Of a DNA stretch of 48,652 bases, positions 1,475-48,150 are shown piece by piece; position 1 is the stretch's first letter, and each line of letters begins with the position of its first letter. Source of the stretch: Nanobdellota archaeon (lineage in GTDB: Archaea > Nanobdellota > Nanobdellia > Pacearchaeales > GW2011-AR1). Location: positions 1-48,652 of the forward strand of contig JAEWUG010000010.1 of NCBI GenBank assembly GCA_023397215.1, written 5' to 3'. The position numbers and the translations under genes are program-made. Below the pieces are notes generated by a model. It was not told the DNA's origin, did no database searches, and saw nothing but the letters and a program-made list of their open reading frames with translations.

Positions 1475-1483
1475 GTTTATTGT

Positions 1484-1777: not shown

Positions 1778-1782
1778 TTTAC

Positions 1783-1980
1783 TCAAGACTCAATAATATT
1801 TTTATTATTCTTTTTTAATCTAGATATATAACCCGCAACCTTATTTCTTAAACGTTTACTCGGAAGTGAGTTTCCTAATATTTTTTTGTTGTGATCAAAT
1901 TTGACATCATATAAATCTGAATCTGATTCTATTAATTGTTTAGATGTTCTTTTAATCAATGTTGACTTAATTCTTCCCAT
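1783..1980 (-). CDS. rps17e: 30S ribosomal protein S17e
   Basis: 65 aa. 'MGRIKSTLIKRTSKQL...FDHNKK...RNKVAGYISRL' is typical of archaeal eS17. Confidence 0.85.
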   Translation of the reverse strand: MGRIKSTLIKRTSKQLIESDSDLYDVKFDHNKKILGNSLPSKRLRNKVAGYISRLKKNNKNIIES

Positions 1981-2024
1981 AAGCTATTTAAAAAAAATTA
2001 ATTTATAAGTCTTGTGGTAATAAA

Positions 2025-2960: not shown

Positions 2961-2982
2961 AAATTAAGAGAAGACCTTTAAT

Positions 2983-2990
2983 ATTTTAAA
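2983..2990 (-). promoter_or_regulatory. TATA box (TTTAAAAT) for the winged-helix ORF
   Basis: 23 nt from the ATG at 2960. Confidence 0.4.
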
Positions 2991-3005
2991 CCTTATTACA
3001 AAAAA

Positions 3006-3602
3006 TTATCTTGCTGCATCAGCTTGTTTTTCTATTTCATTTTTCTTAGAAATAGCATATGATTCACTAGAATTATCAGCAGCAGCAATTATTTCTTTTG
3101 CTAAACTCTCAGTAATATTCATTTTTTTATTAAATGCCTTATCATAAGAACCATTAACAATAAACCTTAAAACAAGATTAAGTCTCCTACGAGGAGAAAC
3201 ATCAACAGCTTGAGGATATCTTGCTCCACCATATTCTATTGAAGTAATTTCATCTCTTGGTGCAGCATTTTCTAAAGCTTTAACAAAAATCTTTAAAGGA
3301 TTTTCTTTTGTTTTTTCTTCAATAATTTTAAATGCATCCATTACAATTTTTGTACATTTAGAGTGTTTTCCTGTAATCCAAGAAGTAATAATTCTATGTT
3401 TCTTACCTCTAGAACCTGGAACTTGTAAAATATTAATTAATCTTTCAACAACATTTACTTTTGCTTTAGTTGGATCCCATTTAATTCTACCATGTGATTT
3501 TAAAATTAACTTTGGGCTTAAATTAATAACTTTTTTTAAAGAAGGATCTGTTACTCTAACTTCACTAGCATCATATAAACCAAAGACTTTCATTTCTTTC
3601 AT
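3006..3602 (-). CDS. rps7: 30S ribosomal protein S7 (uS7)
   Basis: 198 aa. It follows S12 as in the conserved S12-S7 pair. Conserved 'GGARYPQAVDVSPRRR' and the C-terminal '...EKQADAAR'. Confidence 0.95.
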   Translation of the reverse strand: MKEMKVFGLYDASEVRVTDPSLKKVINLSPKLILKSHGRIKWDPTKAKVNVVERLINILQVPGSRGKKHRIITSWITGKHSKCTKIVMDAFKIIEEKTKENPLKIFVKALENAAPRDEITSIEYGGARYPQAVDVSPRRRLNLVLRFIVNGSYDKAFNKKMNITESLAKEIIAAADNSSESYAISKKNEIEKQADAAR

Positions 3603-4024
3603 TATCTTCTTCCTTTTTCAATCTTACCTTGCCATAATCGACTAAGAGGTTGATCATTTACTTTAATAATTTGAAATCTAACACCAGACAAATCTCCTTT
3701 TGTTCTACCTTGTTTTCCACCAATTCTTTCAATTAAAACTTCATCATGTTCTTCTATAAATTTTTGTGCTAAATTACCTGGAATAAATGCAGTAACCTCT
3801 TTACCAGAACGAATTAATTGAACTCTACAACATTTTCTCATTGCTGAATTAGGTTGTTTAGCTTCTTTTTGAACCTTTTTAGTAACTATTCCTCGAGCTT
3901 GACTACTTCTACTCAAAGGATCAAATTTTAAAGTAATACCTAATCTTTTCTTTTTAAGAGGCAATTTATTATCTCTAAATGTCTTTCTATTCTTTTTCAA
4001 TTTTCTTGCATTGTTTAATCCCAT
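3602..4024 (-). CDS. rps12: 30S ribosomal protein S12 (uS12)
   Basis: 140 aa. 'KQPNSAMRKCCRVQLIRSGKEVTAFIPG' is the uS12 core. 1-nt overlap with S7. Confidence 0.95.
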   Translation of the reverse strand: MGLNNARKLKKNRKTFRDNKLPLKKKRLGITLKFDPLSRSSQARGIVTKKVQKEAKQPNSAMRKCCRVQLIRSGKEVTAFIPGNLAQKFIEEHDEVLIERIGGKQGRTKGDLSGVRFQIIKVNDQPLSRLWQGKIEKGRR

Positions 4025-4068
4025 CTTATATTAATATTTTGGAGAAATCCTTTAAAAAGATTTCCATT

Positions 4069-4488
4069 CTATCCTATTTTTAGTTCATATCCAAAGATAT
4101 CTTTAATTATCTTAGACAATTCCTTTTCTTTAAGTCTATCTCTACCAATAAGAGTTGCTTTATTAATTCTACTAGCGTCGATAGATAAAATATCTTTTTT
4201 TAATTCAACTTTATTTAATTCAATAGGATTTAACAATTTTTCAATAAAACTAATAACTTCTTTTTCTTCTTTATTAGGTAAGGAAATTATTTTAATTTTT
4301 TTTCCAATAATTTTATTTATTTTTCTAACATTATCTGCATCCTTCCCAATGGCTTTTGAAACAGCAGACTTATTTACTAAGAAAATTATTTGATTATTAT
4401 ATTTAAAACAATGTTTTGCTTCAATTTTAGTTACTTTATTAAAAATATTAATATATCTAATAAACTGCATATCAATAACTTTTACCAT
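4069..4488 (-). CDS. nusA: archaeal NusA-like KH-domain transcription termination/antitermination factor
   Basis: 139 aa with two KH-like segments ('VSKAIGKDADNVRKINKIIGKKIKII'). It holds the canonical position between L30e and S12. Confidence 0.85.
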   Translation of the reverse strand: MVKVIDMQFIRYINIFNKVTKIEAKHCFKYNNQIIFLVNKSAVSKAIGKDADNVRKINKIIGKKIKIISLPNKEEKEVISFIEKLLNPIELNKVELKKDILSIDASRINKATLIGRDRLKEKELSKIIKDIFGYELKIG

Positions 4489-4489
4489 T

Positions 4490-4729
4490 TTATTTAACTA
4501 TAGAAAAAACTTCACAATTAAAATCTAAGTTTAACAATTTAATAACTTCTTTTTTTGGTTTCAAAAAACTAAATTTAATCTTATTTTCATTAAGTTGGTT
4601 TACAATTTCTTCTCTTGCATCCTTTACTAAATAAACTTCTTTTAAATTTTTTTTATGTTTAATACATTCCTTTAAACCAAAATATGCTTTTTTTGATTCA
4701 ACAGCATCTTTAATTTCTTTAATTCCCAT
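4490..4729 (-). CDS. rpl30e: 50S ribosomal protein L30e (short form)
   Basis: 79 aa. It lies directly after rpoA, as in the archaeal rpoH-B-A-L30e-nusA-S12-S7 cluster. 'GLKECIKHKKNLKEVYLVKD' aligns with the L7Ae/L30e fold. Shorter than usual. Confidence 0.7.
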   Translation of the reverse strand: MGIKEIKDAVESKKAYFGLKECIKHKKNLKEVYLVKDAREEIVNQLNENKIKFSFLKPKKEVIKLLNLDFNCEVFSIVK

Positions 4730-7700
4730 TTACTTTTTTTTCTCCTTATTTTTATTTGCAAGTGGGCCAGTTACTTTAACTAAAAGACCTGGTAAACCAG
4801 TTCCAACAGGCACAGGTTGATTTAAAATAATATTCTCAATAACAGATGCAACATTATCTTTTATTCCAGTCTTTGTAGCTTGAACAAATTGCTTATCAGG
4901 TGTTTCAAAAGAAGCTCTAGCTAAAATTGAATTTTTATCTGAGATAATACCCATTCTTGTAATACCCTTAACAATTCCAGAAGCAGTCATTGTGTCTGCA
5001 ACTAAATTTGCATGTTTATCATCTAAATCTAAACCTTGAGATATTAAAACTTTTTGAATTTCATTAATTACAACTTGACGAGCAGCTTCAATACCTAAGA
5101 CATTTGCTACTTCATGTAAATCATTAGAACTAACTTTATTTACATCTACTCCTTTAAACTTTAAGATGTCCTTTAAATTAGAACCAGCTGTTAAAATAAC
5201 AAAATCTTTACCTTTTTTAACTACTAATACTTGAGATACTTTTTTAACCCCAGAAAAAATAACTTCTTTTATCTTTTCCTTAATCTTATAAATTGTTTTA
5301 AAATCTTCTTTAGACATATCAAAAATCATACCACTTTCTGACTTTTTAACATCATAACCTTTATCATTTAATGTAGTAATAACAGTATCTAAAGTAGTAT
5401 GTGCTGATCTTAATGATTTAGAATCAACACTAATTTTAATTTGTTTAGTACCAAAATCAATAGAAATATCTGACATAATTTCTTTTAATTTCCTTTCTTT
5501 AATTTTTTCAGCAATAATTCTAGCATCATTTTCATTATTAAATTCTTTATCTAAATAAATTTCCATAGTAGGTAATTTTGGTTGTTTTCTTGCATCTAAT
5601 ATCTCAATTAATCTAGGTAAACCAGTTGTAACCTGCATTTCAGCAACACCAGCAGCATGGAATGTATTCAATACCATTTGAGTAGATGACTCACCAAATG
5701 ATTGAGCTGTAACTAATCCAACAGCTTCACCTGGAGCAATCTTCTCACTTTTATGTAAACCAGCAACATCAAAACCGTCAGTACCATAAATAAATTCTAT
5801 AATTTTACCAGAAGCATCTCTAATTGTACCATCATAAGCTACAATTAAATCTTGAAGTGCATTTGCAAGTCTTCTATATAAATAACCTGATTTAGGTGTT
5901 CTAAGAGCAGTATCCATTAAACCATCTCTACCAGTTATTGCACCAAAGAAAAATTCTACAGGCCCTAAACCGCCCATAAAAGAACTTTCAATAAAACCTC
6001 TAGCTTTAGGAGATAAATCACCTTTCTTAAAAAAAGGTAATGTTCTTTGAGTATAACCAAAATCAATTCTTTTACCATTTAAAACCTGTTGTCCAACACA
6101 ACAAGAGATCTGAGTTACATTTAACATACTACCCCTAGCTTTAGAACTGATCATATTATTTACATTATTATCCTTAGGGAAATTATTTTTAACAACATCA
6201 CCAATTTGAGTTCTAACTTCATTTAAAATTTGTAAAATTTTTAATTCTCTTGTTTCTTCAGCACTTCTACCAGGTAATAATTCTAAAGAATCATTATAAA
6301 AAGATTCGATTACTTCTTGAGTCTTTTTATCAGCAGTATCTATTATTTTTTTAGTTTGTTTTTGAGTTTCTTCTCCAACATGTAAATCATCTAAAGAAAT
6401 AGTAAAACCATTTCTAGATAAAAATGTAACACCCAAAGCAAAAACTTTTCTTAATGTTTCCATTGCTTCTGTTCTACCCATCTCTTTATCAATAATTTTT
6501 AAATCATTACCAGATTCTTTTCTAAAACCAAGAGGTTTCATACTTTGATTTTTATATTTTTCTGGTAAAACTTTTGAAAATATTGATTCTCCAGAATTAT
6601 TTTTATTTAAATTAAAGTTTTTAACTCCAGCTGAATAAAGTAATTGGGAACTTTCTGCATAATCTAAATCTGTTTGAAGTAATAAATGATTTCCAGTAGC
6701 AGCATCATCAATACATCCCATTAAATTCATATTATTTTTAGGAGAAAATAAATTATTATTTACATTTAATAATATTTCAGATTCTGCTCTTGCTTCTTCA
6801 TTTTGAGGACCATGAATATTCATTTCATCACCATCAAAATCAGCACCATAAGGATTACAAGAAGAAGGATGCATTCTAAAAGTTCTAAAAGGTAAAACTC
6901 TTACAAAATGAGCCATTAAAGAAGCTCTATGTAATGAAGGATGTCTATTAAATAAAACAATATCACCATCAACTAAATGTCTTTCAACAATATAACCGGG
7001 TTCAATTTCTTCAGCAATATTATCTCTTAAGTCTTCGGTAATTCTTTTTCTTTTTCCATCAGGTCTAATTACATAATTAGCACCGGGATAATCTACAGAT
7101 AAAATTAATTTTTTACATCTTTCGAGATTAAATGTAGTTACTCTTTCTGCAACAGTAATTATTTTTGCAATATCTAAAGGAACACCAACTTCATTAATTT
7201 TTAAATTTGGATCTGGAGAAATAACAGTTCTAGCAGAAAAGTTAACTCTTTTACCTGCTAAATTCTTTCTAATTCTACCTTCTTTACCTTTAATTCTCTC
7301 AGTAATAGTTTTTAATGGTTGACCACTTCTATGTCTTGCAGGAGGAACTCTTGCAATAGAATTATCAAAGAAAGTAGTTATATGGTATTGTAATAAATCC
7401 CATAAATCTTCAATAATAACCTCAGGAGCACCTGCATTTAAGTTTTCCCAAAGTCTTTGATTTGCTCTAATTATATCTGATAACTTATGAGTTAAATCGT
7501 CTTCACTTCTTTCACCTGATTCTAATGTAATAGAAGGTCTAACAGTTACAGGAGGAACCATTAATAAAGTCAAAATTGCCCATTCAGGTCTTAATGTTTT
7601 TGCATTTATTCCTAAAATTTTTAAATCTTCATCAGAAACTTTTGCTAATCTTTCTCTAATCTCACTTGGGAATAATCTTCTTTTACCTACTTTAAATGTA

Positions 7701-11596: not shown

Positions 11597-11624
11597 TTTT
11601 GAATATTAGAATATTTTCTTTTAC

Positions 11625-11632
11625 TTTAAAAA
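11625..11632 (-). promoter_or_regulatory. TATA box (TTTTTAAA) for the rpoH-rpoB-rpoA operon
   Basis: 29 nt upstream of the rpoH ATG at 11596. It is the first A/T box upstream of the operon. Confidence 0.4.
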
Positions 11633-11703
11633 TGAAAAAAACTGGGTTTAAAAACCTTTTGTTTTTAATCCCTTAATGTTTTTTCATTAAATATATTCTT
11701 TTA

Positions 11704-11778
11704 TGGCCTCGACGGGATTTGAACCCGCGACACCTGGGTTAAAAGCCCAGTGCTCTAGCCAAACTGAGCTACGAGGCC
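11704..11778 (-). tRNA. tRNA-Lys: tRNA-Lys (anticodon UUU), 75 nt, no encoded CCA, no intron
   Basis: This is the only GC-rich island outside coding sequence. The reverse complement folds as GGCCTCG/TA/GCTC-AGTTTGGCTA-GAGC/A/CTGGG-CTTTTAA-CCCAG/GTGTC/GCGGG-TTCAAAT-CCCGT/CGAGGCC/A. Confidence 0.9.
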
Positions 11779-11828
11779 GAATATAATATTATAAGAATAA
11801 TTTTAATTTAAAAATGTTTGCTTCAAAT

Positions 11829-12830
11829 TTACTTAAACAAAAATTGTCTTGTTTTTACGCCTGCTTGTTTAAATAGCCTTATAGCAGCTTTAACACCGTC
11901 ACTATCCTTGTATTTATTATCAAGATAAATAACTTCTATAATACCAGCTTGGATAATTAATTTAGCACATTCATTACAAGGAAATAGAGTAACATACATT
12001 TTACAATTTTTAGTTTCTCTTGTAGAATTTAAAATAGCATTAGGTTCAGCATGAACAACATAAGCATATTTAGTCTCTAAAAATTTTCCTTCTCTTTCCA
12101 TAGGTAATTTTGTGTCATCACATTTCTTTGGAAAACCATTATATCCCAAGCCTATAACTCTTTTATCATTATCTACAATACATGCCCCTACTTTTGTAGA
12201 AGGATCTTTACTTTTTTGAGCTGCAACTTGTGCAAATGTCATAAAATATTCATCCCAAGTTAAAGGAGGAATTAATATTTTAATATCTTGATATAACTGT
12301 TCAATCTTTTCTTTAATCTCATTTAAATCTCCTTCATTTAATAAGATAAATTTAGCTAGCTTCATACATTTACCAACACCTTGTCCTGACTCTTTTTCTC
12401 CAATACCTTTATCTTTTTTATCCACTTTCAAAAATTCTTCCCAAGTAATTGGATCACTTTCTCTATTTCTCGAAATCATTCTTTCAAAACGAATTTTAGG
12501 ATTAGCATCAACTGCAACTAAAAAAAAATCTTTTAATTGATTTAACTCTTCAATTTCAGCAGGATTTCTAATACCATCAACAATAGCTTTTTTATATTCT
12601 TGATTTTTTATTTTTTTAATAACCAATTTTGCTAAAACACCACTTCCACTTTCTTCTCTAAGTTTATTTCCTAAATTTTGCAAATTTTCTCGTGTAATTT
12701 CAATTTTTCGCTCTTTTGCAATTTGTCTTAATTCATCCGATAATGATAAATAAACAAAACCTTTTTCTTTAAAATAATCACTAACAACACCCTTACCTGC
12801 AGCTAAACTTCCTGTTAAACCAATTATCAT
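11829..12830 (-). CDS. fusion protein: N-terminal P-loop nucleotide-kinase-like domain plus C-terminal dCMP deaminase (ComEB type)
   Basis: Walker A '[12 protein letters not shown]' at the N-terminus. The C-terminus has the zinc deaminase motifs 'VHAEPNAI' and '[14 protein letters not shown]'. The track start at 12851 is GTG. The ATG at 12830 has a TATA box 22 nt upstream. Confidence 0.85.
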
Positions 12831-12851
12831 AAAAAGATTAGAAAAAATCAC

Positions 12852-12859
12852 TTTATAAA
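12852..12859 (-). promoter_or_regulatory. TATA box (TTTATAAA) for the kinase-dCMP deaminase gene
   Basis: 22 nt from the ATG at 12830. Confidence 0.45.
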
Positions 12860-12885
12860 AAAAATTAAACTCTATTATATATTAT

Positions 12886-13311
12886 TTACAATCCAGTTGA
12901 ACCAAAACCACCATCTCCTCGAACAGTATTACTTAGTTCATTAACTTCTTCAAATTCTGCTCTTTCAACTGGTTGAATTAATAATTGTGCTATTTTTTGA
13001 TTTTTCTTAATAACTAAATCATCATAACCCGTATTCAAAATAATTACAGCATATTCTCCCCGATAATTAGAATCAATGACCCCCCCTAAGATTGCAAGCC
13101 CTTTATTTAAAGCAAGACCACTTTTTCCTTTAATTAAAGCAACATAACCTTTTGAGAATTCCATAGAAAAACCCAATGGGACTAATATTCTCTGGTTTTG
13201 TTCTAAGCAAATATTCATAGTAGAATATAAATCCATACCAGCATCTTCTTCATGAACATAATGGGGTAAAATTATATCATCTCTTAATCTTTTTATTTTA
13301 ACTTTAACCAT
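12886..13311 (-). CDS. dut: dUTP diphosphatase (trimeric Dut type)
   Basis: 'DAGMDLYS', 'GKSGLALNKGL', 'GVIDSNYRGE' and the C-terminal 'RGDGGFGSTG' motifs. Confidence 0.93.
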   Translation of the reverse strand: MVKVKIKRLRDDIILPHYVHEEDAGMDLYSTMNICLEQNQRILVPLGFSMEFSKGYVALIKGKSGLALNKGLAILGGVIDSNYRGEYAVIILNTGYDDLVIKKNQKIAQLLIQPVERAEFEEVNELSNTVRGDGGFGSTGL

Positions 13312-13333
13312 AAAAAAGAAATTAATTCTATAG

Positions 13334-13341
13334 TTTAAAAA
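13334..13341 (-). promoter_or_regulatory. TATA box (TTTTTAAA) for dut
   Basis: 23 nt from the ATG at 13311. Divergent partner of the box at 13365. Confidence 0.45.
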
Positions 13342-13364
13342 GTATCCTAAAAAATCACAAAAAC

Positions 13365-13372
13365 TTATAAAG
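13365..13372 (+). promoter_or_regulatory. TATA box (TTATAAAG) for the PC4-like gene
   Basis: 21 nt from the ATG at 13393. Confidence 0.45.
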
Positions 13373-13392
13373 CCAAGTTAAATATTTAATTT

Positions 13393-13683
13393 ATGGAAAA
13401 AGATATTGGAAGAATACAAAAAAATCCAGAAACAGATATTTTAATTAGAATAGATGACTTTGGTGGAAAAACAGGTTTAACAATTAGAGAATTTGTTCAA
13501 AGTCAAAAGTATACTGGTTTCACAAAAGCAGGAACAAGAATTCCAGCAGATAAATTTGAAGATTTCAAAAAATTGATTAATTCAATAAATTCAGAAGACT
13601 TAAAGAATTCAGAACAAGAAACATTAAATCAAACAAAGATACAAGATAATAATTCTGGAATCAACGAAGAAGGATATTTATAA
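13393..13683 (+). CDS. PC4/Sub1-like (YdbC-like) putative ssDNA-binding protein
   Basis: 'ILIRIDDFGGKTGLTIREFVQSQKYTGFTKAGTRIPADKFEDFKKLINSI' follows the PC4 C-terminal domain pattern (xxVRxFxGKxxIDIREyw...KGIsLxxeqwxxL). Recognised by eye only. Confidence 0.55.
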   Translation: MEKDIGRIQKNPETDILIRIDDFGGKTGLTIREFVQSQKYTGFTKAGTRIPADKFEDFKKLINSINSEDLKNSEQETLNQTKIQDNNSGINEEGYL

Positions 13684-13700
13684 TTTTAGAAACAATAACT

Positions 13701-13708
13701 TTTATATA
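13701..13708 (+). promoter_or_regulatory. TATA box (TTTATATA) for acdA
   Basis: 22 nt from the ATG at 13730. Confidence 0.5.
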
Positions 13709-13729
13709 CAAATCAAACATTTATTTTCT

Positions 13730-15040
13730 ATGAAAGAGGTTATAAAAAATATATTTGATGCTAAAACATATGCTGTTATTGGTGTAAGTAGAAATGAAAA
13801 AAAAGTAGGTCATATTATTTTTAAAAATTTATTAAATTCTCACAAAAAAATAATTGGAATAAACCCTAATACAAAAAAAATACTCAATCAAGAAATTTTT
13901 TCAGATTTAATTGAAACACCTTATAATATAGATGTAATAATTATTGCTAGCCCTCCAAAAACAATACCTTTAATATTAAGACAAGCAGGAAAAAGAAAAA
14001 TAAAATATGCTATTATTATTTCAGCTGGATTCTCAGAGAGTAATAATAAAGAATTAGAAGAACATATTAAAAGAGTTGCAATAGAAGAAAATATAAGAAT
14101 ATTAGGACCAAATTCTTTTGGAATAATAGACACTTATCAAAATCTAAATACAACATTTTATTCTGGAAATTTAAACAGAGGAAATATAGGTTTTATTTCT
14201 CAATCAGGAGCAATAGCTTCAGCAATGTTAGATAAAATAAATTCTTTTTCCAAATTTATATCACTAGGAAATTCAATAGATATAAATTTTAATAACTTAA
14301 TTGATTATCTTATTTATGACGATAAAACAAAGATAATTTGTCTTTATGTAGAAAGTTTACAAAAAAATAGTGGAAGAGAATTTATTGAAATTTGTAAAAA
14401 GTCAAAAAAACCTATTATTGTCTTAAAAGGAGGTAATTCAAAATCAGGACAGGATGCAGCCAAATCACACACTGCAGCTCTTGCAACAGATTCAGAGATT
14501 TATAAAGGAGCATTTAAACAAGCAAGATTAATTCAAGTAGATTCAGTAACAGAGCTTTTTGATGTTGCAAGAATATTAGAAAAATTTCAAAGGATTAACA
14601 AGAATACAACAATAATAACAAATGCAGGAGGATTTGGTGTTTTATCTGCAGATTATTGTGAAAGATATAATATCCCATTAACAAAACTATCTCAAAAGAC
14701 AATAGAATCATTAAATAAAATATTACCTTCTAATTGGTCAAAGAATAATCCAATAGACATTATTGGAGATGCAATACCAGAAGACTATAAGAAAGTATTA
14801 GAGATTATTGAAAAAGATAAAGAAACAGAAAATATTATTTTGATTTTAACACCACAACATACAAGTCAACCAGAAAAAGTCGCAAAAATTTTAAACACAA
14901 TAAAAAAACCATTATTTACTTGTTTTATTGGAGGAGAAAAAATAAATGAAGCAAAAAAAATATTAAACCAAAATAAAATAATCAATTATTCAGAACCTGA
15001 ATATTTATGTAAAACACTAAGTAAAATAATTAGATCTTAA
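13730..15040 (+). CDS. acdA: acetyl-CoA synthetase (ADP-forming), alpha subunit (CoA-binding/ligase-CoA domains)
   Basis: 'YAVIGVSRNEKKVGH', 'GPNSFGII', 'FISQSGAIASA' and 'AAKSHTAALA' (catalytic His loop). Confidence 0.85.
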   Translation: MKEVIKNIFDAKTYAVIGVSRNEKKVGHIIFKNLLNSHKKIIGINPNTKKILNQEIFSDLIETPYNIDVIIIASPPKTIPLILRQAGKRKIKYAIIISAGFSESNNKELEEHIKRVAIEENIRILGPNSFGIIDTYQNLNTTFYSGNLNRGNIGFISQSGAIASAMLDKINSFSKFISLGNSIDINFNNLIDYLIYDDKTKIICLYVESLQKNSGREFIEICKKSKKPIIVLKGGNSKSGQDAAKSHTAALATDSEIYKGAFKQARLIQVDSVTELFDVARILEKFQRINKNTTIITNAGGFGVLSADYCERYNIPLTKLSQKTIESLNKILPSNWSKNNPIDIIGDAIPEDYKKVLEIIEKDKETENIILILTPQHTSQPEKVAKILNTIKKPLFTCFIGGEKINEAKKILNQNKIINYSEPEYLCKTLSKIIRS

Positions 15041-23353: not shown

Positions 23354-24496
23354 TCAAATTAAAACCTTTATTTTTTCAACCATATCTAACCTTTCCCAAG
23401 GAAAATAATTGTCATAAGAATCTCTACCAAAATGTCCAAAAAAGGAAGTTGGTTCATAAATTGGATTTTTCAAATTTAATGTTTTAATAATTCCACTAGG
23501 AGTTAAATCAAATAATTTATTTATTATTTCTAAGATTTTTTCTTTACTTATTTTCTCAGTATTAAATGTATCTAAATAAACACTTAGAGGTTTTGAATAA
23601 CCAATAGCATAACTTATTTGAATTTCGCATTTATCACAAATTCCTGAAGCAACAATATTCTTAGCAATATAACGAGCAATATATGCTCCAGACCGATCTA
23701 CTTTTGAAGGATCTTTCCCAGAAAAACAACCTCCACCATGACGAGAAACACCACCATAACTATCAACAATAATTTTTCTACCTGTAAGTCCTGTATCTGC
23801 ACAAGGTCCACCTTTTACAAATCGTCCTGTAGGATTAATAAATATCTTTGTTTTATCATTAATATACTCTTTACAAACAGGTAAAATTATTTTATTTTTT
23901 ATTTCTTGTTTTAATTCATTTAAATCTTTAGAAGCAAAATGATGTATTGAGAAAACAACTGAATCAATATACAAAGGTAAATTATCCTCATAATAAAAAC
24001 AAACTTGAGATTTACAATCTACATTAATACCTTTAATTTCTTTATTATCTCTAACTTCTTTTGCTTTTTTAACCAATTTATGAGATAAGTCTAAGGTTAT
24101 AGGAATATATGAATCTGTTTCATTACAAGCATACCCAAACATAATTCCCTGATCTCCTGCACCTTGATCTTCCTTATCAACACCTTGATTAATATCTTCA
24201 CTTTGTTTTGAAATGTTTAAAATAATTTTAACTTTATCTGAATCAAAATCATCATCAATACCCGTATATCCAATATTTTTAATAGTCTTTCGAATTAAAT
24301 TTTTATAATTTAAATTTGCTTTAGTATTTATTTCTCCAGCACAAATTACCAAATTTTTACATACCATTGTTTCAATTGCAACATGTGAATTATTATCTTG
24401 TCTTAAACATTCATCTAGTAAAACATCACTAATTCTATCTGCAATCTTATCAGGATGCCCAACACCAACAGATTCTGAAGTAAAATAATAACCCAT
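23354..24496 (-). CDS. metK: S-adenosylmethionine synthetase, bacterial/eukaryotic MetK type
   Basis: 'FTSESVGVGHPDKIADRISD', 'GAGDQGIMFGYA', 'GLTGRKIIVDSYGG', 'HGGGCFSGKDPSKVDRSGAY'. It is collinear with E. coli MetK along its whole length. Confidence 0.97.
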   Translation of the reverse strand: MGYYFTSESVGVGHPDKIADRISDVLLDECLRQDNNSHVAIETMVCKNLVICAGEINTKANLNYKNLIRKTIKNIGYTGIDDDFDSDKVKIILNISKQSEDINQGVDKEDQGAGDQGIMFGYACNETDSYIPITLDLSHKLVKKAKEVRDNKEIKGINVDCKSQVCFYYEDNLPLYIDSVVFSIHHFASKDLNELKQEIKNKIILPVCKEYINDKTKIFINPTGRFVKGGPCADTGLTGRKIIVDSYGGVSRHGGGCFSGKDPSKVDRSGAYIARYIAKNIVASGICDKCEIQISYAIGYSKPLSVYLDTFNTEKISKEKILEIINKLFDLTPSGIIKTLNLKNPIYEPTSFFGHFGRDSYDNYFPWERLDMVEKIKVLI

Positions 24497-28325: not shown

Positions 28326-30425
28326 TTATTCTGTACTAAATAGTTTTCTAAACCAATCTAAGATTTTTTGTAAAAAACTGATCCCAACACACTTTTCATC
28401 AACACATAAATTAGAATCACATTCAAAATTATTATCACAAAATTCTCCTTCTCCTTTTTGAAGAACAAAATTATATCTATCATCAGAACAATATTTACGA
28501 TCCTTTCTATATCCTAAATTATAACATTTTTGGTTAAGGATACATTGATCCTTATCACAATTAGTATATCTTAAATCTTCAGGGCTTAAATAACCTAACT
28601 CTTCTTGACTAAAAATCTTATGATATATCTTACTATCTTTACATTTAACAAGATGATAATTTCCATTTTTTGAGGTAGGTACAATCTCTACAAAAACTAC
28701 TTCAACATAATTATCAGATTCACTCCCACCTAAATAATAATCTTTTAAAAAAATTAAAAATTTACCATCTTTTAATTTTTCCTGATAGATTAAAGGTGAC
28801 TGTTTATTAAATTGAATAACATTCCCTTCTACAGTAAATTTCACAGAACCGTCTTTAAATACTTCCAAATTATATCTATCATCATTATCTTTTGAAGACA
28901 ATTCTACAAATTCAAAACTATTTAAACCTAAATCAACAATTAAAAAAACTGCAGAATTAAAAAAATTATCTATTGAATCAAAATTAGAATAAATCAATGC
29001 TAATTTAACATCAATTTCATCTTCATCAGGACCAGAAAAACCAATTGTCTTAAGTAAATTATTATCATTTAAATCAAATCTTATCTTTAAATCATCTTTA
29101 ATTAACAACCCTTTAGTATTACTAGGTAATACTTGATAATCCCAAACATCATCGTTAGAAATATTTATTTGCTTATTATAATAATTATTCTCAGATATTT
29201 TAACATCTTCTCGACCATTTTCATAAAATTTAGTTACCTTTGTTTTAAGAATCATTTTATTGAAAGATCTACTAAAGGTTTCCATTTCAGGAAGACCCGC
29301 CTCAAAAATTTGATAAGACTTATTATCATAAGCAAAATAATATAATTCACCTACATCTAAACATTTTTCCAGACCTAAATTCGAATCATAGTAATGACAG
29401 GTTGAACACACTTGAGTCTTAGAATTATCATAAACGGTAGAATCATTATCTAAATAATCATTTGATATATTAGTAGGATACTGAATCTCAGAACGAATAG
29501 CAGTATAAGCTCTATTATAGTATATATCTTCAATATATTTCTGGAAAGATTCAAAATTAACAAAATCATCCTTAATAAGATAATCTTTATTAAGTTCATG
29601 CCCTTCCTTATTCCTTATATGAACAAGAATAATAGGAAGGATATTAGATTTAGGATGATTAAAATGTTCTAAATCAATATAAATATTATAATTAAATTCT
29701 TTAGTAAAATCATTATAAAATTGAATACCTTCTTTAGAAGAAAGATCTACAAATATAAATCCATCTGAATTCCCATAATTAAAGAAATTTTGAATATCTT
29801 GATCTTCTTTAGAACCATCTTGTATATTTCTTTTATTACTATCAATATACTGATAAAGACTAGAGTTTTGGTTATATCCATTTATAAAAATAATATGAGA
29901 CCCATCATTAATTACTTTATTAATTAGTCTATTTTCGGGTTTAGAACAATTTTTCTTTTTCTCAAAGATAAGACTATTTAATTTAGGATAAAAATAACAG
30001 TTTAACTCACAATTACTACTAAGATAATTTACTCTATCTTCAGTTTCAAGCTCAATAATAGTGTCTTCATTGTAAAAACGATTACTAGGAAGAACAAAAG
30101 TAAAATTAAAAAGATAAGGTATATCATCAAAATAAGTAAAATAACTATTAGAAACATCATGAGTCTCATTTGAGAATAAATAATAACTTCCTTTAATTAA
30201 AACAGAAACAGAATATATAGTAAAATTAGAATTAGTTAAATTATAAACTTCTAAAAATTCTATAGAATTAATAGAATCAACATCTAAGTTTATAGATTCA
30301 CTTATATTTAGGAAAAAGTAATCATAATAATGATACAGAGACTTATTAAGACTATCAAAAGTAGTAGCTGAAGAAAAAAATAAGTAAAAGACAAATAGAA
30401 AAATAAATAATAAATATTTTTTCAT
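28326..30425 (-). CDS. secreted 699-aa Asn/Tyr-rich protein with a Cys-rich C-terminal domain
   Basis: Signal peptide 'MKKYLLFIFLFVFYLFFSSA'. Many N-x-S/T sequons. The C-terminus is 'C..DQC...QKCYNLGYRKDRKYCSD...GEGEFCDNNFECDSNLCVDEKC'. Confidence 0.75.
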   Translation of the reverse strand: MKKYLLFIFLFVFYLFFSSATTFDSLNKSLYHYYDYFFLNISESINLDVDSINSIEFLEVYNLTNSNFTIYSVSVLIKGSYYLFSNETHDVSNSYFTYFDDIPYLFNFTFVLPSNRFYNEDTIIELETEDRVNYLSSNCELNCYFYPKLNSLIFEKKKNCSKPENRLINKVINDGSHIIFINGYNQNSSLYQYIDSNKRNIQDGSKEDQDIQNFFNYGNSDGFIFVDLSSKEGIQFYNDFTKEFNYNIYIDLEHFNHPKSNILPIILVHIRNKEGHELNKDYLIKDDFVNFESFQKYIEDIYYNRAYTAIRSEIQYPTNISNDYLDNDSTVYDNSKTQVCSTCHYYDSNLGLEKCLDVGELYYFAYDNKSYQIFEAGLPEMETFSRSFNKMILKTKVTKFYENGREDVKISENNYYNKQINISNDDVWDYQVLPSNTKGLLIKDDLKIRFDLNDNNLLKTIGFSGPDEDEIDVKLALIYSNFDSIDNFFNSAVFLIVDLGLNSFEFVELSSKDNDDRYNLEVFKDGSVKFTVEGNVIQFNKQSPLIYQEKLKDGKFLIFLKDYYLGGSESDNYVEVVFVEIVPTSKNGNYHLVKCKDSKIYHKIFSQEELGYLSPEDLRYTNCDKDQCILNQKCYNLGYRKDRKYCSDDRYNFVLQKGEGEFCDNNFECDSNLCVDEKCVGISFLQKILDWFRKLFSTE

Positions 30426-42488: not shown

Positions 42489-42502
42489 ATTTTTATTTTA
42501 TT

Positions 42503-42542
42503 GGGAATCTTTATTATTTTATTCCCTTATTCTCTTTTTTTT
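42503..42542 (+). terminator. hairpin (GGGAAT-12 nt-ATTCCC) followed by a T8 run, downstream of EF-1alpha
   Basis: Stem arms at 42503-42508 and 42521-42526. T8 at 42535-42542. Confidence 0.45.
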
Positions 42543-42583
42543 ATGAAGAGAAAATGAAAAATAGATACTATTTTTAGAGAATA

Positions 42584-42591
42584 TTTATAAA
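42584..42591 (+). promoter_or_regulatory. TATA box (TTTATAAA) for the giant surface-protein gene
   Basis: 22 nt from the ATG at 42613. Confidence 0.5.
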
Positions 42592-42612
42592 CATAAATAG
42601 ATAGTTATTTGT

Positions 42613-45600
42613 ATGAAAAAAGAGATGAAAAAATTCTTTATAATATTGATTTTTTTAGCAATTTTAACATTTACAATTTCTTATAATTTAGAAAATAAAT
42701 ATAACATAACTGGACAAGTATTTAGAACATTAGATTTAGAACAACCAACAATTGATAGTTGTGCATCACAAAATCAAGGACTAGAAAATAATAAAATATA
42801 TGATTTAACATTAAATGTAAATGCAGAAAATATTTGTATAAATTTAACAAATAAGAATAATATAACAATTGACTTAAAATCACATACAATAATAGGAAAA
42901 CAAAATTACCCAACAATATACTTAGATAATTGTCAGAATATAACTTTTTTAGGAGGAAAAATAACAAATTCATCAAATGCTATTCACATAAAAAATTCAG
43001 AAGAAATTAATTTTATGAATACAATAATAGAAAACACATCTATTGAAGGTATAAAATTAGAAAATAGTGAAGAAATTAATTTAACAAATATTATTTATGA
43101 TAATAAAAATTTGGGTGATCTAACTAAATTAAATAATTGGGATGAAATTTCTCCTATTGATGTTGGAACACTCTCTTCTATTTCAATTTCAAGTGATGGA
43201 CAAAAAATATTAATTAGTAGTAAAAATGGTAAAGTTTATCTATCTGAAAATTTTGGTCAAACTTGGAATGAAAAACAGACTATAGGAGATTGGGTTGCAA
43301 CAGCAATGAATAGTAATGGTTCAACTATGTTATTGGCTAAAAATGGTTCATCCATTTATTTATCAACAGATTCTGGTTCTACATGGTCAACACCAAGTAT
43401 AACAAATACTATTAACTCAAATTGGGCAGCAATTGGAGTAGCAAAACAAGTTAATACAATAATAGCATTAGAAAAAAGTGGACAAGTTTACAAATACAAC
43501 GGAACTCATTTTAATAATGTAACAAATGAAACAAAAGATTGGAGAGATTTAACAATAACAGGATTACATAATTTGATTTTTGCAGTAGCATATAATGATA
43601 AAATTTACAAATCTACAAATAGTGGAGATACTTTTGAAAATATAACTAATGAATCAAAGAATTGGTATACAATATCTATGTCATTTGATGGATCAAAAAT
43701 AATTGCTGGAGAAAATCCTGGAAGACTTTGGTATTCAAATAATACAGGAATAAATTGGTATGAATTAAAACCTGCAGGAGATGTAAATATGAATTGGGAA
43801 ACAACATCTATTTCTGAAGACGGAAATAAAATTCTTGCAGGTTCTGGAACAAATAATGCAAGAATTTATTTATCTGAAGATTCAGGAAAAACATGGACAG
43901 AGATGCAACCATTAGGGGATACTGACCAAAACTGGAAAGCATCAGCAGTCTCAAATAAAAGTAATATTTATCTAGGAATTCAAGACGGGTCAATATATCA
44001 ATATTCAAAAAAAGGAATTATAATAGAAAACACGAATTCATCTTTAATCAAAGATAATACTATTTCAAATATTGACCAAGCAATAAAATTAACAGGTTCA
44101 TCAAATCAGAATATAATTGAAAATTTAAAAACACAAAATACTATTTATTCTATAAAAGATTTAACAACATTATCATATCAAAATTATTTAAAATTTTCAA
44201 ATGAATATGGTAATTTTATTTGGGCAAATGATTCTATAAACCAAGATTTAACAACAACAAAACAATTTAATATTTTAAATCCTCAACAAATGAAAATATC
44301 CCAAAATAATATTTATGTTAATGATACATACTATAATTTATTAAATGAATCAATAAATATTACTTTTTATAGAACCGATGATTGGCAAGATTATATTTTT
44401 ATTTTAAAAAGCAGTGAAACTTGTATGCCTGATTGTATTGAAAGATTTAGAAATGTAGAGAATATATCTTTTAAAACAACATCACTAGGGAATTATTCTA
44501 TTAATGGACCTATAGAAATTAATAGTTGTCAAAGTCAATACTTCTTCAAAGATTATAGAGTTTATACATTAAGTCAAAATATTGATAACTTTAATAGTGC
44601 TCAAAATTGTTTTATGATTGAAGATAATAATAATATAACTTTAGATTTAAAAGGACATTTTGTGAGATCAACACATTTATCTGCAGGAAGTGGAATATTA
44701 ATATTAAGATCAGAAGGAATAAATATTAAAAATGGTGAATTAATTAATTTTACACAAGGAATTAAAATAGAAAATTCAAAAGATAGTTTAATAGAAAATG
44801 TAACTCTTAAACAAGGAAGAAAATATGGAATTAATTTATTTGACACAAACTCAAATACTGAGAACAATATCTTATCTAATTTAAATTTTGAGGATAATAA
44901 GGAATTTTCTATATTTGACGAGACACAAATAACCGACTTAAATTATTTAATATACAATAACTCTTATGGTACTGTCGAATGGGCAAATAATAATCTTTAC
45001 CAGAATTTAAGTTTTGAGAATAATTTAACAAAGGAAAAAAATATATTAATTAAACCATCAAACATTTTTTTAAATTTTACAAATGTAGATGAAAAAATAA
45101 ATTCAACAATAAATTTAACATTTTATAATGTAGGAACAGATAATTATAAAAGAAATAATGAAACTTGTTTAATATGTAATGATATTGCAGTTGGATTAGA
45201 AATTGCAACAATAAAGTTCAATACAACTAATGATGGAAATTACACAGTTGAAGAAATTGGTTATATTAATCAATGTGGTTATTCTAATTGGTTTAATGGC
45301 GGGAAATATATCATTAATCAAAGTATAGAGTCAGAAGGAGATTTATGTTTTAATATAACAAATAATAATGTTTTATTAGATTTAAATAATACAATAATAA
45401 ATTCAACTATTCCACAAACAAATAATGGGATTAGAACAAATAAAACAAATATAACTATTAAAAATGGAATATTAAAAAACTTCAATGAATCAATAAAGAT
45501 AGAGAATGCTACAAACATTTATTTACAGAATATAACTTTTAACAATAATTCAAATGATTTAATAATAAACAATTCAACAAATATAACTTTGAAAGATTCG

Positions 45601-48150
45601 CATTTTCAAAACACCTTCAATAAAATAATTTATTCTACTAAATCTGTTTTATTAGATATCACAAAAATAAAAATAGATAGTTTTTTAGGTGATTCAAAAA
45701 ATATAATTGACTTAAATCAAGTAATAAACTCAAGCATATCTCAAATTAATTTTACAGACAATAGAACAGGAAATACTTTTTTATATTTAGAACAAGTAAA
45801 TAATACTATAATAGAAAAAATAAATTTAGAAAACATAAGCCTAATAGGAATCAATATAAAAGAATCAAATGAGAATCACATAAAAGAAATTAATATTACT
45901 GAAAAAGAATTTGATCAAACAACAGCAATAAAACTTAATCAATCTAATGAAAATTTAATTGAATCAATAAAAATAGAAAATGTTGAATATAATTTTAATA
46001 TTTCAAATTCAGAAAAGAATTTGTTTAAAGATATAAATTTAATAAATCCAAAAAGAATTGGAATTTTCTTATTAAACTCAATTAATAACACTTTAAATAA
46101 TACTATTATAACTAATAATTTAGAAAATGAAAATACAGGAATTGTTTTATATAATTCATCTTACAATAATTTAAATTCAACAAATATAAATAATTTATCA
46201 GTAAGTATTAAATTAGAAACAAATAGCCAAAATAACCAAATTAAGAACTTAAACTCAATTTCTAAAGAAAATTCAATAATAGATAATTCTGGATTAGATA
46301 AACAAAATTATTTTTATTATGAAAATATTTATGGAAAAATAAACTGGATAAATGAAACTTTCTTAAAAGATTTATCTTTAGAAGAGGATATTACTTTTCC
46401 AGGAATAATCTCTCTTGGAGAATTACAAGCCAATATTTCATCAAGTATTTTAAAATTAAATACTACAATGGAAATTTTATTGAAGAATACTAAAGGTTAT
46501 ACAGAATTATTTCATTTTAATTTAACCCGAAATAATATAGAAGATACTGAATCTGAAATAAAATCTCTTGATACAAATGAAATAATATTTAATACAACAA
46601 CAAGTGGAAATTATTTAATTAAAGATACAATAGTAGATACATCAATAGAATCTTGTCAAGAAATAATCCACCCAAATAAAATTTATCAAATAATGAATAA
46701 TATTAATAGTGAAGAAGAAAAATGTTTAATATTAAATGCAAATAATATAACAATTTTAGGAAATAATAAAAGAATTAATGGAACTAATGGTATTGCAATT
46801 TATGTTAATGCATCTAATATCACAATTCAAGATTTTTATTTAATAGAAAATTTTGAAACAGCGATTTATATTTCTCCAAATGTTAAAAATACTTTAATTA
46901 AAAATTTATACACAAATAATGTCTCTTACTCAATCTTAGATGAAAGTTTAGATGAAAATAAAAATAATATTACTTATGAATCATCATACTCTAAAATTAA
47001 GTGGTTAGATGAAGATTTATCTCAAGATTTAACAATCACAAACGAAATTCAAAGAGGAAATGATATTTCTTTAAATGAAAATTATATCTTTCTAAATAAT
47101 ACTAAATTATCTAAATTAAACAGACAATCTAAAATTATTTTTAGTTTATGGAATAATGAAGTTCTTAATTTAAATATTTTAAAAAATGGTTCTACTTGTA
47201 GTAGCAGTATATGTTTAGGAGTCGAAAATGATAATAATAATTTAATTTTAGATGTTAATGAATGGGGAAATATTTCATTTAGTGGTTGTGGTGATAGAAT
47301 AATTAATGGAGATGAAGAAGAATGTGAAGCATCAGACTTTATTGATGATAAAACATGTTATGATTATGGTTTTAATTCAGGTAGTTTATCTTGCTTTGAT
47401 AATTGTACTATTGATATTTCAGATTGTGAATTAGTAGAAACTATTACTCCACCAAGTTCAGGTGGAAGTACTGGAACAACTACAAATACAACAACACCAA
47501 CTACAGGAACAAATACAACAACACCAACTACAGGAACAAATAATCAACCTTCATCAGGAGAAAACTTAGAAAATCCTAATTCATTAAATTTATCTCTAAT
47601 AATTGGTATTTCTATCGGAATTTTAATATTAATAACATTATCATTAGTGATTATTTATACAAAAAAGAAATCTAAAAATAAAAACAATACACAAAAAAAT
47701 AATACACAAAATATTCAAAGAAAACCAATTGTATTATCTCCTCCAAAAGCCCCACAAATTATGAAAACAGTAAACCAAAAAAATATGACAAATAATCAAC
47801 TACCAAGAAATAATATTCCAAGGAATAGAATACCACCAAGAAATCCCTTACCACCGCAAATTCAAAATAAAATAAATGAAATGCCAAAACCTAAGCCAAT
47901 AATAGAAGAAAAAAAAGAACTCACAAATGAAGAATTTAAGAAAAATAAAGAAAATGATATTAAAGTAAAACAAAAAATCAAAGAATTATTATTAAATGGA
48001 CTAAATCAAATAAAATCAAGAGATATAAACCAAGCAATAGAAACTTATAAAAAAATAAATATTGAATATCAGAATATGTCTGAACATAATGATGCAGTTT
48101 ATGATACAGTAGTAGAGTTTTACAAAAGAATAAGAGATTTAAAAGAATAA
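42613..48150 (+). CDS. giant (1845 aa) modular surface protein: signal/anchor, four beta-helix modules, Asp-box beta-propeller, Cys-rich domain, Thr-rich stalk, TM helix, cytoplasmic tail
   Basis: A single uninterrupted ORF with a TATA box 22 nt upstream. N-terminal 'FFIILIFLAILTFTI'. Repeats of 'NIT(I/L)DLK.H' plus 'I.I.NS..I' beta-helix rungs. Five 'S.(D/N).G.(T/N)(W/F)' motifs. 'CGDRIINGDEEEC'. 'TTPTTGTN' x2. TM 'LSLIIGISIGILILITLSLVIIY'. Confidence 0.9.
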   Translation: MKKEMKKFFIILIFLAILTFTISYNLENKYNITGQVFRTLDLEQPTIDSCASQNQGLENNKIYDLTLNVNAENICINLTNKNNITIDLKSHTIIGKQNYPTIYLDNCQNITFLGGKITNSSNAIHIKNSEEINFMNTIIENTSIEGIKLENSEEINLTNIIYDNKNLGDLTKLNNWDEISPIDVGTLSSISISSDGQKILISSKNGKVYLSENFGQTWNEKQTIGDWVATAMNSNGSTMLLAKNGSSIYLSTDSGSTWSTPSITNTINSNWAAIGVAKQVNTIIALEKSGQVYKYNGTHFNNVTNETKDWRDLTITGLHNLIFAVAYNDKIYKSTNSGDTFENITNESKNWYTISMSFDGSKIIAGENPGRLWYSNNTGINWYELKPAGDVNMNWETTSISEDGNKILAGSGTNNARIYLSEDSGKTWTEMQPLGDTDQNWKASAVSNKSNIYLGIQDGSIYQYSKKGIIIENTNSSLIKDNTISNIDQAIKLTGSSNQNIIENLKTQNTIYSIKDLTTLSYQNYLKFSNEYGNFIWANDSINQDLTTTKQFNILNPQQMKISQNNIYVNDTYYNLLNESINITFYRTDDWQDYIFILKSSETCMPDCIERFRNVENISFKTTSLGNYSINGPIEINSCQSQYFFKDYRVYTLSQNIDNFNSAQNCFMIEDNNNITLDLKGHFVRSTHLSAGSGILILRSEGINIKNGELINFTQGIKIENSKDSLIENVTLKQGRKYGINLFDTNSNTENNILSNLNFEDNKEFSIFDETQITDLNYLIYNNSYGTVEWANNNLYQNLSFENNLTKEKNILIKPSNIFLNFTNVDEKINSTINLTFYNVGTDNYKRNNETCLICNDIAVGLEIATIKFNTTNDGNYTVEEIGYINQCGYSNWFNGGKYIINQSIESEGDLCFNITNNNVLLDLNNTIINSTIPQTNNGIRTNKTNITIKNGILKNFNESIKIENATNIYLQNITFNNNSNDLIINNSTNITLKDSHFQNTFNKIIYSTKSVLLDITKIKIDSFLGDSKNIIDLNQVINSSISQINFTDNRTGNTFLYLEQVNNTIIEKINLENISLIGINIKESNENHIKEINITEKEFDQTTAIKLNQSNENLIESIKIENVEYNFNISNSEKNLFKDINLINPKRIGIFLLNSINNTLNNTIITNNLENENTGIVLYNSSYNNLNSTNINNLSVSIKLETNSQNNQIKNLNSISKENSIIDNSGLDKQNYFYYENIYGKINWINETFLKDLSLEEDITFPGIISLGELQANISSSILKLNTTMEILLKNTKGYTELFHFNLTRNNIEDTESEIKSLDTNEIIFNTTTSGNYLIKDTIVDTSIESCQEIIHPNKIYQIMNNINSEEEKCLILNANNITILGNNKRINGTNGIAIYVNASNITIQDFYLIENFETAIYISPNVKNTLIKNLYTNNVSYSILDESLDENKNNITYESSYSKIKWLDEDLSQDLTITNEIQRGNDISLNENYIFLNNTKLSKLNRQSKIIFSLWNNEVLNLNILKNGSTCSSSICLGVENDNNNLILDVNEWGNISFSGCGDRIINGDEEECEASDFIDDKTCYDYGFNSGSLSCFDNCTIDISDCELVETITPPSSGGSTGTTTNTTTPTTGTNTTTPTTGTNNQPSSGENLENPNSLNLSLIIGISIGILILITLSLVIIYTKKKSKNKNNTQKNNTQNIQRKPIVLSPPKAPQIMKTVNQKNMTNNQLPRNNIPRNRIPPRNPLPPQIQNKINEMPKPKPIIEEKKELTNEEFKKNKENDIKVKQKIKELLLNGLNQIKSRDINQAIETYKKINIEYQNMSEHNDAVYDTVVEFYKRIRDLKE
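47482..47542 (+). repeat. perfect tandem repeat, 27 bp x about 2.2 (ACAAATACAACAACACCAACTACAGGA), in-frame within the giant gene
   Basis: Copies at 47482-47508 and 47509-47535 are identical, followed by a partial third copy. They encode TNTTTPTTG twice (Thr-rich stalk). Confidence 0.9.

Follow-up and report, generated by a model that had tools for sequence, protein, structure and literature searches.

A giant four-module beta-helix protein with a nested propeller from a Nanobdellota archaeon, plausibly a surface adhesin

What does a Nanobdellota archaeon (order Pacearchaeales in GTDB) do with a protein of 1845 residues encoded in one unbroken frame? The question arises near the end of the DNA analysed here, a stretch of 48,652 nucleotides from contig JAEWUG010000010.1 of assembly GCA_023397215.1 (hereafter the window), where an initial annotation made by reading the letters had pointed to a giant modular surface protein and proposed it as a candidate host-attachment machine. 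We found that the protein carries four beta-helix-like modules, a propeller nested in the first of them, a single transmembrane (TM) helix and a tail of 161 residues. Our preferred reading, to which we give a probability of about one half, is that of a type I membrane glycoprotein acting as a non-enzymatic adhesin or receptor, in the form of a semi-rigid surface fibre. The layout of the open reading frame (ORF) and its parts is as follows, in window coordinates:

42613..48150, + strand: complete ORF, 1845 aa, 11.4% of the window
42613..42690, + strand: basic stretch and hydrophobic segment, residues 1-26, from a hydropathy scan
42751..43140, + strand: front of module 1, residues 47-176, with the Cys50...Cys75 cap and the first rungs
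43141..44022, + strand: seven-bladed Asp-box (BNR) beta-propeller inside module 1, residues 177-470 (294 aa)
44023..44514, + strand: back of module 1, residues 471-634, with the last rungs, the FSNEYGNFIW closer and a beta-rich closing domain holding Cys604/Cys608
44518..45264, + strand: module 2, residues 636-884, a complete minimal module and the first sequence of the module profile
45265..46644, + strand: module 3, residues 885-1344, a long beta-helix variant whose closing domain has no Cys pair
46645..47286, + strand: module 4, residues 1345-1558, a short variant
44176-44514, 44941-45264, 46300-46644 and 46957-47286, + strand: the four copies of the closing domain
47287..47430, + strand: six-Cys segment CGDRIINGDEEEC...C...C...C...C, residues 1559-1606
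47431..47589, + strand: Thr/Pro/Gly-rich stalk, residues 1607-1659
47590..47664, + strand: single TM helix, residues 1660-1684, followed by KKKSKNK; from hydropathy, and a helix in the structure prediction
47665..47904, + strand: basic, Pro/Asn/Gln-rich linker, residues 1685-1764, with RKPIVLSPPKAPQ and PKPKPII motifs conserved in three orthologues
47905..48147, + strand: three-helix TPR-like end-domain, residues 1765-1845 (helices at about 1772-1842)

The single uninterrupted ORF that had been reported is indeed there. Its codon 5 is a second in-frame ATG, taken as the start by some annotations, and the opposite strand holds short ORFs only. The G+C content of the window is about 25%, at which stop codons are frequent, so an open frame of 5.5 kb is not a chance product. 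It could be argued that such a frame is an assembly chimera or a gene in decay, and in one ENA contig with 2.3x coverage (L002, positions 1-5122) the orthologue lies in pieces, in no fewer than five ORFs, for which sequencing errors are the probable cause. Against this, no fewer than eight independent assemblies carry the gene intact and collinear, with 1832-1854 aa, and the full-length copies at 99% identity, eight in number, come from ENA, JGI and NCBI. The lengths of these strain variants differ only by the called start codon (4 residues) and by a 9-aa repeat in the stalk. Two diverged orthologues are intact as well: L003, of 1851 aa and 77% identity, from a Candidatus Pacearchaeota metagenome-assembled genome (MAG) and the sole orthologue among GTDB species representatives, and L001, of 1850 aa and 55% identity. 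Full-length copies thus come from at least three diverged lineages. Since both orthologues are collinear with our protein over the four modules and the propeller, the ORF is not an assembly artefact. The neighbours are also kept. In the window, genes for an adenylate kinase, a diphthine-synthase-like methylase and EF-1alpha lie upstream and one for a HAD hydrolase downstream; the same order surrounds the gene in L003, and L001 has EF-1alpha upstream. The ratio of non-synonymous to synonymous substitution rates (dN/dS, computed here and below against L003) is 0.19 for the whole gene, so selection acts on its whole length. The mis-assembly that the initial annotation wanted checked was excluded through these copies, orthologues and gene order, and we regard a chimera or a decaying gene as extremely improbable.

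A 19-residue hydropathy scan gave exactly two hydrophobic segments, residues 8-26 and 1660-1684. Residues 1-26 are 94% and 76% identical in the 77% and 55% orthologues, respectively (the order used for all paired identities), and would be a signal peptide of the Sec type or else an anchor that stays uncleaved. All 21 cysteines are N-terminal to the TM helix, in an ectodomain of about 1620 aa. They form pairs at the module starts (50/75, 639/666, 888/912 and 1348/1371) and close to the module ends (604/608, 852/855 and 1529/1534), with six more between residues 1559 and 1605; Cys107 is unpaired and is not kept in the 55% orthologue. The hydrophobic signal or anchor, the Cys-rich domain, the Thr-rich stalk, the single TM helix and the tail of about 160 residues that had been read from the translation are all present.

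The ectodomain is also dense in N-x-S/T sequons, as the initial annotation had noticed. Out of 83 sequons, 77 are in the ectodomain (4.7 per 100 aa), a 1.6-fold excess over the 48.6 ± 5.6 found in shuffled sequences, and no excess was seen in six cytoplasmic or other proteins of the window. In the 55% orthologue, 67% of all 83 are kept, versus 19-38% of the control motifs (reverse sequon, N-x-acidic/basic and N-x-aliphatic). This excess and preferential conservation fit selection for N-glycosylation; part of the signal could also mirror the N-x-T/S pattern of the beta-helix rungs.

The modules were compared with BLASTP segment against segment (a self-comparison of the whole protein gave the identity match alone), and proved to be four diverged copies of one unit, with E values of 1e-8 to 1e-12. 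All four have the Cys...Cys opener (IDSC.., INSC.., INQC.. and IESC...) and the conserved closer that the initial annotation had described, the latter with the pattern F/Y-x-N/S-x-Y-G/S-x-I/V-x-W at residues 528, 781, 1236 and 1455 (FSNEYGNFIW, YNNSYGTVEW, YENIYGKINW and YESSYSKIKW). The four repeats proposed near residues 50, 636, 885 and 1345 are therefore real, but the first is not continuous, as the propeller splits it in two. Its front piece matches the front of module 2 (residues 636-724, E 1.7e-8) and its back piece the back of modules 2, 3 and 4 (E 9e-12, 8e-6 and 1e-10, respectively).

Direct Pfam matches of the modules to beta-helix families stayed below the gathering scores, with a best of 23.3 bits for Beta_helix PF13229 (module 3; gathering score 25.9) and of 18.3 bits for NosD PF05048 (module 1; 23.6). 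A profile of 10 module copies collected 54 proteins, nearly all of which carry PF13229 and most PF05048 too. When this profile was compared with the PDB, the best match was the polygalacturonase 7b8b (E 1.7e-5), and the NosD structure 7o0y gave a weak one (E 0.087). Two AlphaFold 2 (AF2) models agree with the assignment. The first, for module 1, used a multiple sequence alignment (MSA) that took in the orthologue and propeller homologues; it shows regular short strands at about 75-170 and 465-515 with predicted local distance difference test (pLDDT) scores of 71-92 (76-92 over the front piece), at moderate confidence and from a shallow MSA. The second, for residues 1345-1845, was built from three sequences and is usable for the cap and rungs of module 4 (pLDDT about 70-77), the TM helix and the tail helices only. 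By these profile intermediates and the predicted fold, the modules are NosD/pectin-lyase-like right-handed parallel beta-helices, in line with the rungs first seen by eye. They share such rungs with NosD and with CASH/PbH1 (PF13229), the two families carried by the profile relatives. Unlike NosD proper, the protein has no nos genes among the neighbours named above, scores below gathering, has several modules and is membrane-anchored.

The polygalacturonase match raises the alternative of a cell-bound enzyme, with a pectin-lyase fold or a BNR glycosidase domain, that degrades or modifies polysaccharides and digests polymers or the host wall. A degradative role has been speculated for pectin-lyase-like proteins of Nanobdella (10.1101/2023.10.27.564410). 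However, the match to polygalacturonases spans generic rung positions only. In the alignment of the profile to 7b8b, n-g-n stands at the NTD motif of family GH28, e-q at DD and k-k-G at GHG, and in the four modules the catalytic positions are occupied by S/T/N, TQ/SN/NE/ET and Y/E. The catalytic Asp, Asp-Asp and His are conserved in none of them, and membership in GH28 was rejected.

The propeller bears on the same alternative. Its Asp-boxes (S-x-D-x-G-x-T-W type) are visible in the translation, and two Pfam families pass their gathering scores, Sortilin-Vps10 with 58.1 bits (gathering 33) and PSII_BNR with 32.2 (27), which supports the propeller that the initial annotation had named. The AF2 model shows seven four-strand groups with pLDDT mostly at 75-96, and the top Foldseek matches are Ycf48 structures (5ojp, 5oj3 and 2xbg; TM-score normalised to the target 0.72-0.75, E about 5e-13). 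A sub-threshold match to the F510_1955 'glycosylhydrolase' family (62 bits, cutoff 175) would speak for a glycosidase. On the other side, residues 177-470 contain no RIP motif of sialidases and BNR glycosidases and three Arg only, BNR_2 is below threshold (20.1 bits versus 31.4), and the best structural match, Ycf48, is non-enzymatic. No enzyme family reaches its curated threshold in Pfam or NCBIfam, including over the whole protein. With the GH28 residues missing from the modules and the FRIP motif missing from the propeller, the protein bears no signature of an enzyme; we consider an enzymatic role quite unlikely, and less probable than that of an adhesin or receptor.

Regarding its relatives, the propeller resembles Ycf48/HCF136 in its Asp-box repeats above Pfam thresholds, its seven blades and its best PDB match, with the difference that the protein here has no connection to photosystem II. 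The sequence of propeller, Cys-rich segment, one TM helix and cytoplasmic tail is also that of sortilin. Sortilin has ten blades with the 10CC domain directly after them, whereas here seven blades in 294 residues are nested in a beta-helix, the Cys-rich segment follows more than 1000 residues further on and the Sortilin-Vps10 match spans profile positions 2-134 of 446 only. Vps10/sortilin proper was thus rejected. The nesting of a propeller within a beta-helix module is one of three less expected features of the protein, next to the closing domain without a curated family and the conserved cytoplasmic end-domain (both described below), and curated databases do not cover it. The propeller is also its fastest-evolving folded part, with a dN/dS of 0.31.

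Every module ends in a conserved, beta-rich closing domain of about 110 aa, with the consensus NYLxYNNSYGEIxW...INSSANITL...ILKDG..C..C.NFT...V.FNVSSWSNYSI. It is strongly conserved elsewhere too: 90 of the fetched proteins contain 254 copies between them, and its profile corresponds to no Pfam model and has no sequence relative in the PDB. An Ig-like fold had been proposed for this stretch, over which pLDDT is below 50 in both AF2 models. In the first model, the confidence stayed low here because paralogous module fragments were dropped from the MSA, MAFFT having spread them across the propeller.

Between the last module and the membrane lie the six-Cys segment and the stalk, which differ markedly in conservation. 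The six-Cys segment is 83% and 65% identical in the orthologues (dN/dS 0.09). Its CGD-x6-EEC pattern resembles the CGDG...EECD repeat by eye only: residues 1555-1656 scanned alone against Pfam and NCBIfam gave no match to DUF4215/myxo-repeat (TIGR02232) at E values up to 10, and DUF4215 membership was rejected. The segment belongs to no Pfam or NCBIfam family. The stalk is the least conserved part of the protein (dN/dS 0.69). Tandem Repeats Finder detected in it a perfect 27-bp tandem repeat (47482-47542, 2.3 copies, 100% match) that encodes TNTTTPTTG, and the 99% identical strain variants from different metagenomes (ENA, JGI and NCBI) have one, two or three of these units.

On the cytoplasmic side, AF2 predicts a disordered linker followed by the helical end-domain (pLDDT 76-89). 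The end-domain is the most conserved part of the protein, with identities of 88% and 75% versus 77% and 55% overall and a dN/dS of 0.10. A domain of this kind, of about 60-70 aa, recurs in four other giants with several beta-helix modules, namely P0118, P0134, P0132 and P0187; all of them have it after a TM helix and 1-7 residues from the C-terminus. This family was obtained with a hidden Markov model (HMM) iterated over proteins already fetched. Its members scored 31-48 bits in leave-one-out tests, versus 6.5 bits for the best match in a reversed database; P0163 was weaker (21 bits) and P0150 failed the test. A database search with the tail alone returned one near-identical fragment. No TPR match was found by Pfam in the window's own tail, and in four relatives TPR_6, TPR_8 or TPR_2 gave E values of 0.002-0.15, all below gathering. 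The tail profile gave weak matches in the PDB, mostly to TPR proteins (best HOP TPR1, E 0.017), and Foldseek of the second AF2 model returned MIT domains of archaeal Vps4 and other three-helix matches, all at E above 1. As the TPR matches are sub-threshold and the Foldseek ones non-significant, we use 'TPR-like' as a description and not as a membership.

The recurrence of this domain invites a more speculative proposal. The domain might be the hallmark of archaeal surface receptors of a class not yet described, with a coupling through the membrane like that of integrin or sortilin tails. It would link the fibre to a partner in the cytoplasm, for example a protein of the cytoskeleton, of division or of trafficking, so that host contact could be positioned by the inside of the cell or relayed to it. 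We hold this to be unlikely; the locus gains interest only if the tail domain turns out to be a general coupling device.

The module itself is far from rare. Its profile, which includes the closing domain, has matches in 30,634 of 1.84 billion representative clusters (E <= 1e-3), or in 645 if E <= 1e-30 is required. Many of these proteins are giant, measuring 3,000-7,400 aa and containing as many as 43 stretches that match the profile. We screened 150 proteins, namely the 147 best module-bearing matches plus P0002, P0022 and P0053. Under a strict hydropathy cut-off, 46 of them have a TM helix at the C-terminal end, with tails longer than 100 aa in 16 of those, and several Asp-boxes were seen in three only, one of which is the orthologue P0002. 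P0022 combines six modules with a Cys-rich region, a TM helix and a tail, and P0053 is a one-module version in the order signal peptide, module, CGDG motif and TM helix. Members of the 90% cluster of our protein bear the NCBI label 'right-handed parallel beta-helix repeat-containing protein', and the clusters of ten relatives carry generic names only. The claim that the architecture is not a named system was thus overstated, because the module occurs in more than 30,000 protein clusters, an NCBI label exists and giants of DPANN archaea are documented (PMC10266531). As a single locus, it is a fairly ordinary representative of a common class of large glycosylated surface proteins.

The full architecture, in contrast with the module, is confined to a narrow clade, and a metagenome scan recovered already-known lineages only (two). 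The guess of a DPANN origin, made from the letters, agrees with the names in the 90% cluster (Candidatus Nanoarchaeia) and with the Candidatus Pacearchaeota MAG of the GTDB orthologue.

Next to the whole-gene value, dN/dS is 0.12-0.21 for the modules and 0.08-0.20 for the neighbouring enzymes. There is no sign of diversifying selection, and the gene is under ordinary purifying selection. The comparison of orthologues for hypervariability, suggested by the initial annotation, revealed none of the kind that an adhesin in an arms race might show, the strains being 99% identical. Expression signals are placed upstream as follows:

42503..42543, + strand: hairpin GGGAAT-N12-ATTCCC followed by a T-run, just 3' of the EF-1alpha stop codon
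42584..42591, + strand: TTTATAAA box, 22-29 nt before the ATG, kept in all three orthologous loci

The intergenic region (42489-42612, 124 nt) is 92% identical in the three orthologous loci, in which the proteins are 55-77% identical. The hairpin and T-run are invariant across them and are probably a terminator dividing the giant gene from the EF-1alpha gene. From its position and consensus, the TTTATAAA box would be an archaeal TATA-type promoter for a leaderless or near-leaderless mRNA.

Slow evolution and a strong promoter fit equally well the main rival of our reading, a structural component of the envelope, that is, a surface-layer (S-layer) glycoprotein or an S-layer-associated spacer glycoprotein with no specific attachment. 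Purifying selection at the level of housekeeping neighbours and 99% identity among strains agree with it, as do the strong conserved TATA box of a gene adjoining EF-1alpha and the dense, conserved sequons; the conserved cytoplasmic end-domain could set the lattice spacing. Haloarchaeal S-layer glycoproteins have a Thr-rich stalk and then a C-terminal TM anchor, which the stalk and anchor of this protein recall. Several observations argue in the other direction. No S-layer family appeared in whole-protein Pfam and NCBIfam scans, and the protein lacks a PGF-CTERM-type end, with 161 aa after the TM helix; S-layer family and PGF-CTERM memberships were accordingly rejected, given the lack of HMM matches and a TM helix that is not at the extreme C-terminus. 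The module proteins have from 1 to 43 matched stretches and reach 7,434 aa, and because module number and size vary so much, accessory surface fibres fit better than lattice subunits. The narrow distribution of the full architecture also weighs against an envelope role. We consider an envelope component a possible, though somewhat unlikely, explanation.

For the adhesin or receptor that we prefer, the following arrangement can be proposed. With the fibre anchored at the C-terminus, its distal tip would consist of module 1 and the propeller. This tip would most likely bind a ligand, either a glycan or a protein, on a surface other than its own, which could be that of a host cell, of a partner cell or of a polymer. 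The glycosylated beta-helix modules would act as a spacer and as secondary lectin-like surfaces. The end-domain would probably tie the fibre to a partner inside the cell and so position or cluster it, with no enzymatic signalling.

The adhesin role is plausible by analogy with other DPANN archaea. Pectin-lyase-like surface proteins of Nanobdella, with 36-52 sequons, have been discussed as interacting with the host wall (10.1101/2023.10.27.564410), and pectin lyase domains have been placed in the host-recognition step of Nanohaloarchaeum (10.1101/2023.02.24.529834). Nanohaloarchaea have giant membrane-anchored proteins with cytoplasmic domains (PMC10266531), and large extracellular proteins of Pacearchaeota and Woesearchaeota are viewed as possible attachment factors (PMC8204110); a meta-omics preprint on Pacearchaeota does not mention surface proteins. 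In the host-attachment interpretation of the initial annotation, the surface-exposed, C-terminally anchored and sequon-rich ectodomain with its tail stood up to analysis, whereas the words 'host-attachment machine' draw on analogy with the first two of these studies (10.1101/2023.10.27.564410; 10.1101/2023.02.24.529834).

Some points weigh against our reading. The lack of hypervariability and of positive selection fits an envelope protein as well as an adhesin. The missing GH28 residues do not speak against a beta-helix enzyme of a different chemistry. Structure prediction was not confident for the closing domain or the Cys knot, and the TPR-like label of the tail comes from sub-threshold matches only.

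By comparing the protein with described systems, we found the closest likeness in MJ1_0451, MJ1_0701 and MJ1_0776 of Nanobdella aerobiophila, which combine a signal peptide, a parallel beta-helix, extra beta-rich domains and dozens of sequons (10.1101/2023.10.27.564410). They also come from a DPANN organism and have a proposed role at the host interface, and the likeness is one of domain make-up. Unlike them, the protein here strings four modules in series, nests an Asp-box propeller in the first and adds a six-Cys knot, a stalk of variable length and a long tail with the end-domain. The SPEARE proteins and SVXNc_0300 of Nanohaloarchaeota, also DPANN, likewise join a Sec signal, an ectodomain of propeller and beta-rich domains, a membrane anchor and a cytoplasmic part, and they have been proposed to act in the interaction with the host (PMC10266531; PMC6642349). 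However, these giants have 5-9 thousand residues and a cytoplasmic VirB4/TraG-like ATPase, whereas here the 161-aa tail carries a small helical domain and Pfam and NCBIfam scans detected no ATPase domain anywhere in the protein. SPEARE membership was rejected for the lack of a VirB4/TraG-like ATPase in these scans. Fibrocystin/PKHD1, FHA and pertactin offer an analogy only, as long beta-helix (PbH1) ectodomains for contact, fibrocystin being a type I protein with a short tail (PMC13424714); there is no detectable homology past the rung repeat, and secretion and anchoring differ.

To our knowledge, Pacearchaeota have no cultured representative. If the adhesin reading is true, the gene is a delimited candidate for how these archaea contact partner cells or polymers, with the propeller as a clear tip domain. 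The closing domain and the shared cytoplasmic end-domain are, like the nested propeller, outside the coverage of curated databases, and defining these families would improve the annotation of very many 'hypothetical' archaeal surface proteins.

Other genes, in the window and on the related contig L002, also deserve mention. About 6.5 kb downstream of the broken orthologue on that contig, positions 11617-14124 encode an 835-aa Laminin_G_3 protein, which belongs to another proposed class of DPANN surface or host-recognition proteins. In the window, an ORF of 699 aa (28326-30425, - strand) has an N-terminal signal-like segment, a Cys-rich C-terminal end, 12 sequons and no Pfam match, and judging from these features it may be another secreted protein. 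An S-adenosylmethionine synthetase (23354-24496, - strand) shows the S-AdoMet_synt_N, M and C domains of Pfam with up to 215 bits; we take it to be MetK, the bacterial/eukaryotic type and not the usual archaeal one, which would fit the bacterial-like genes reported in DPANN archaea. Finally, an ORF of 340 aa (11829-12851, - strand) is an apparent fusion of an N-terminal P-loop kinase-like region (AAA_17/AAA_18/CoaE matches) with a C-terminal dCMP/cytidine deaminase.

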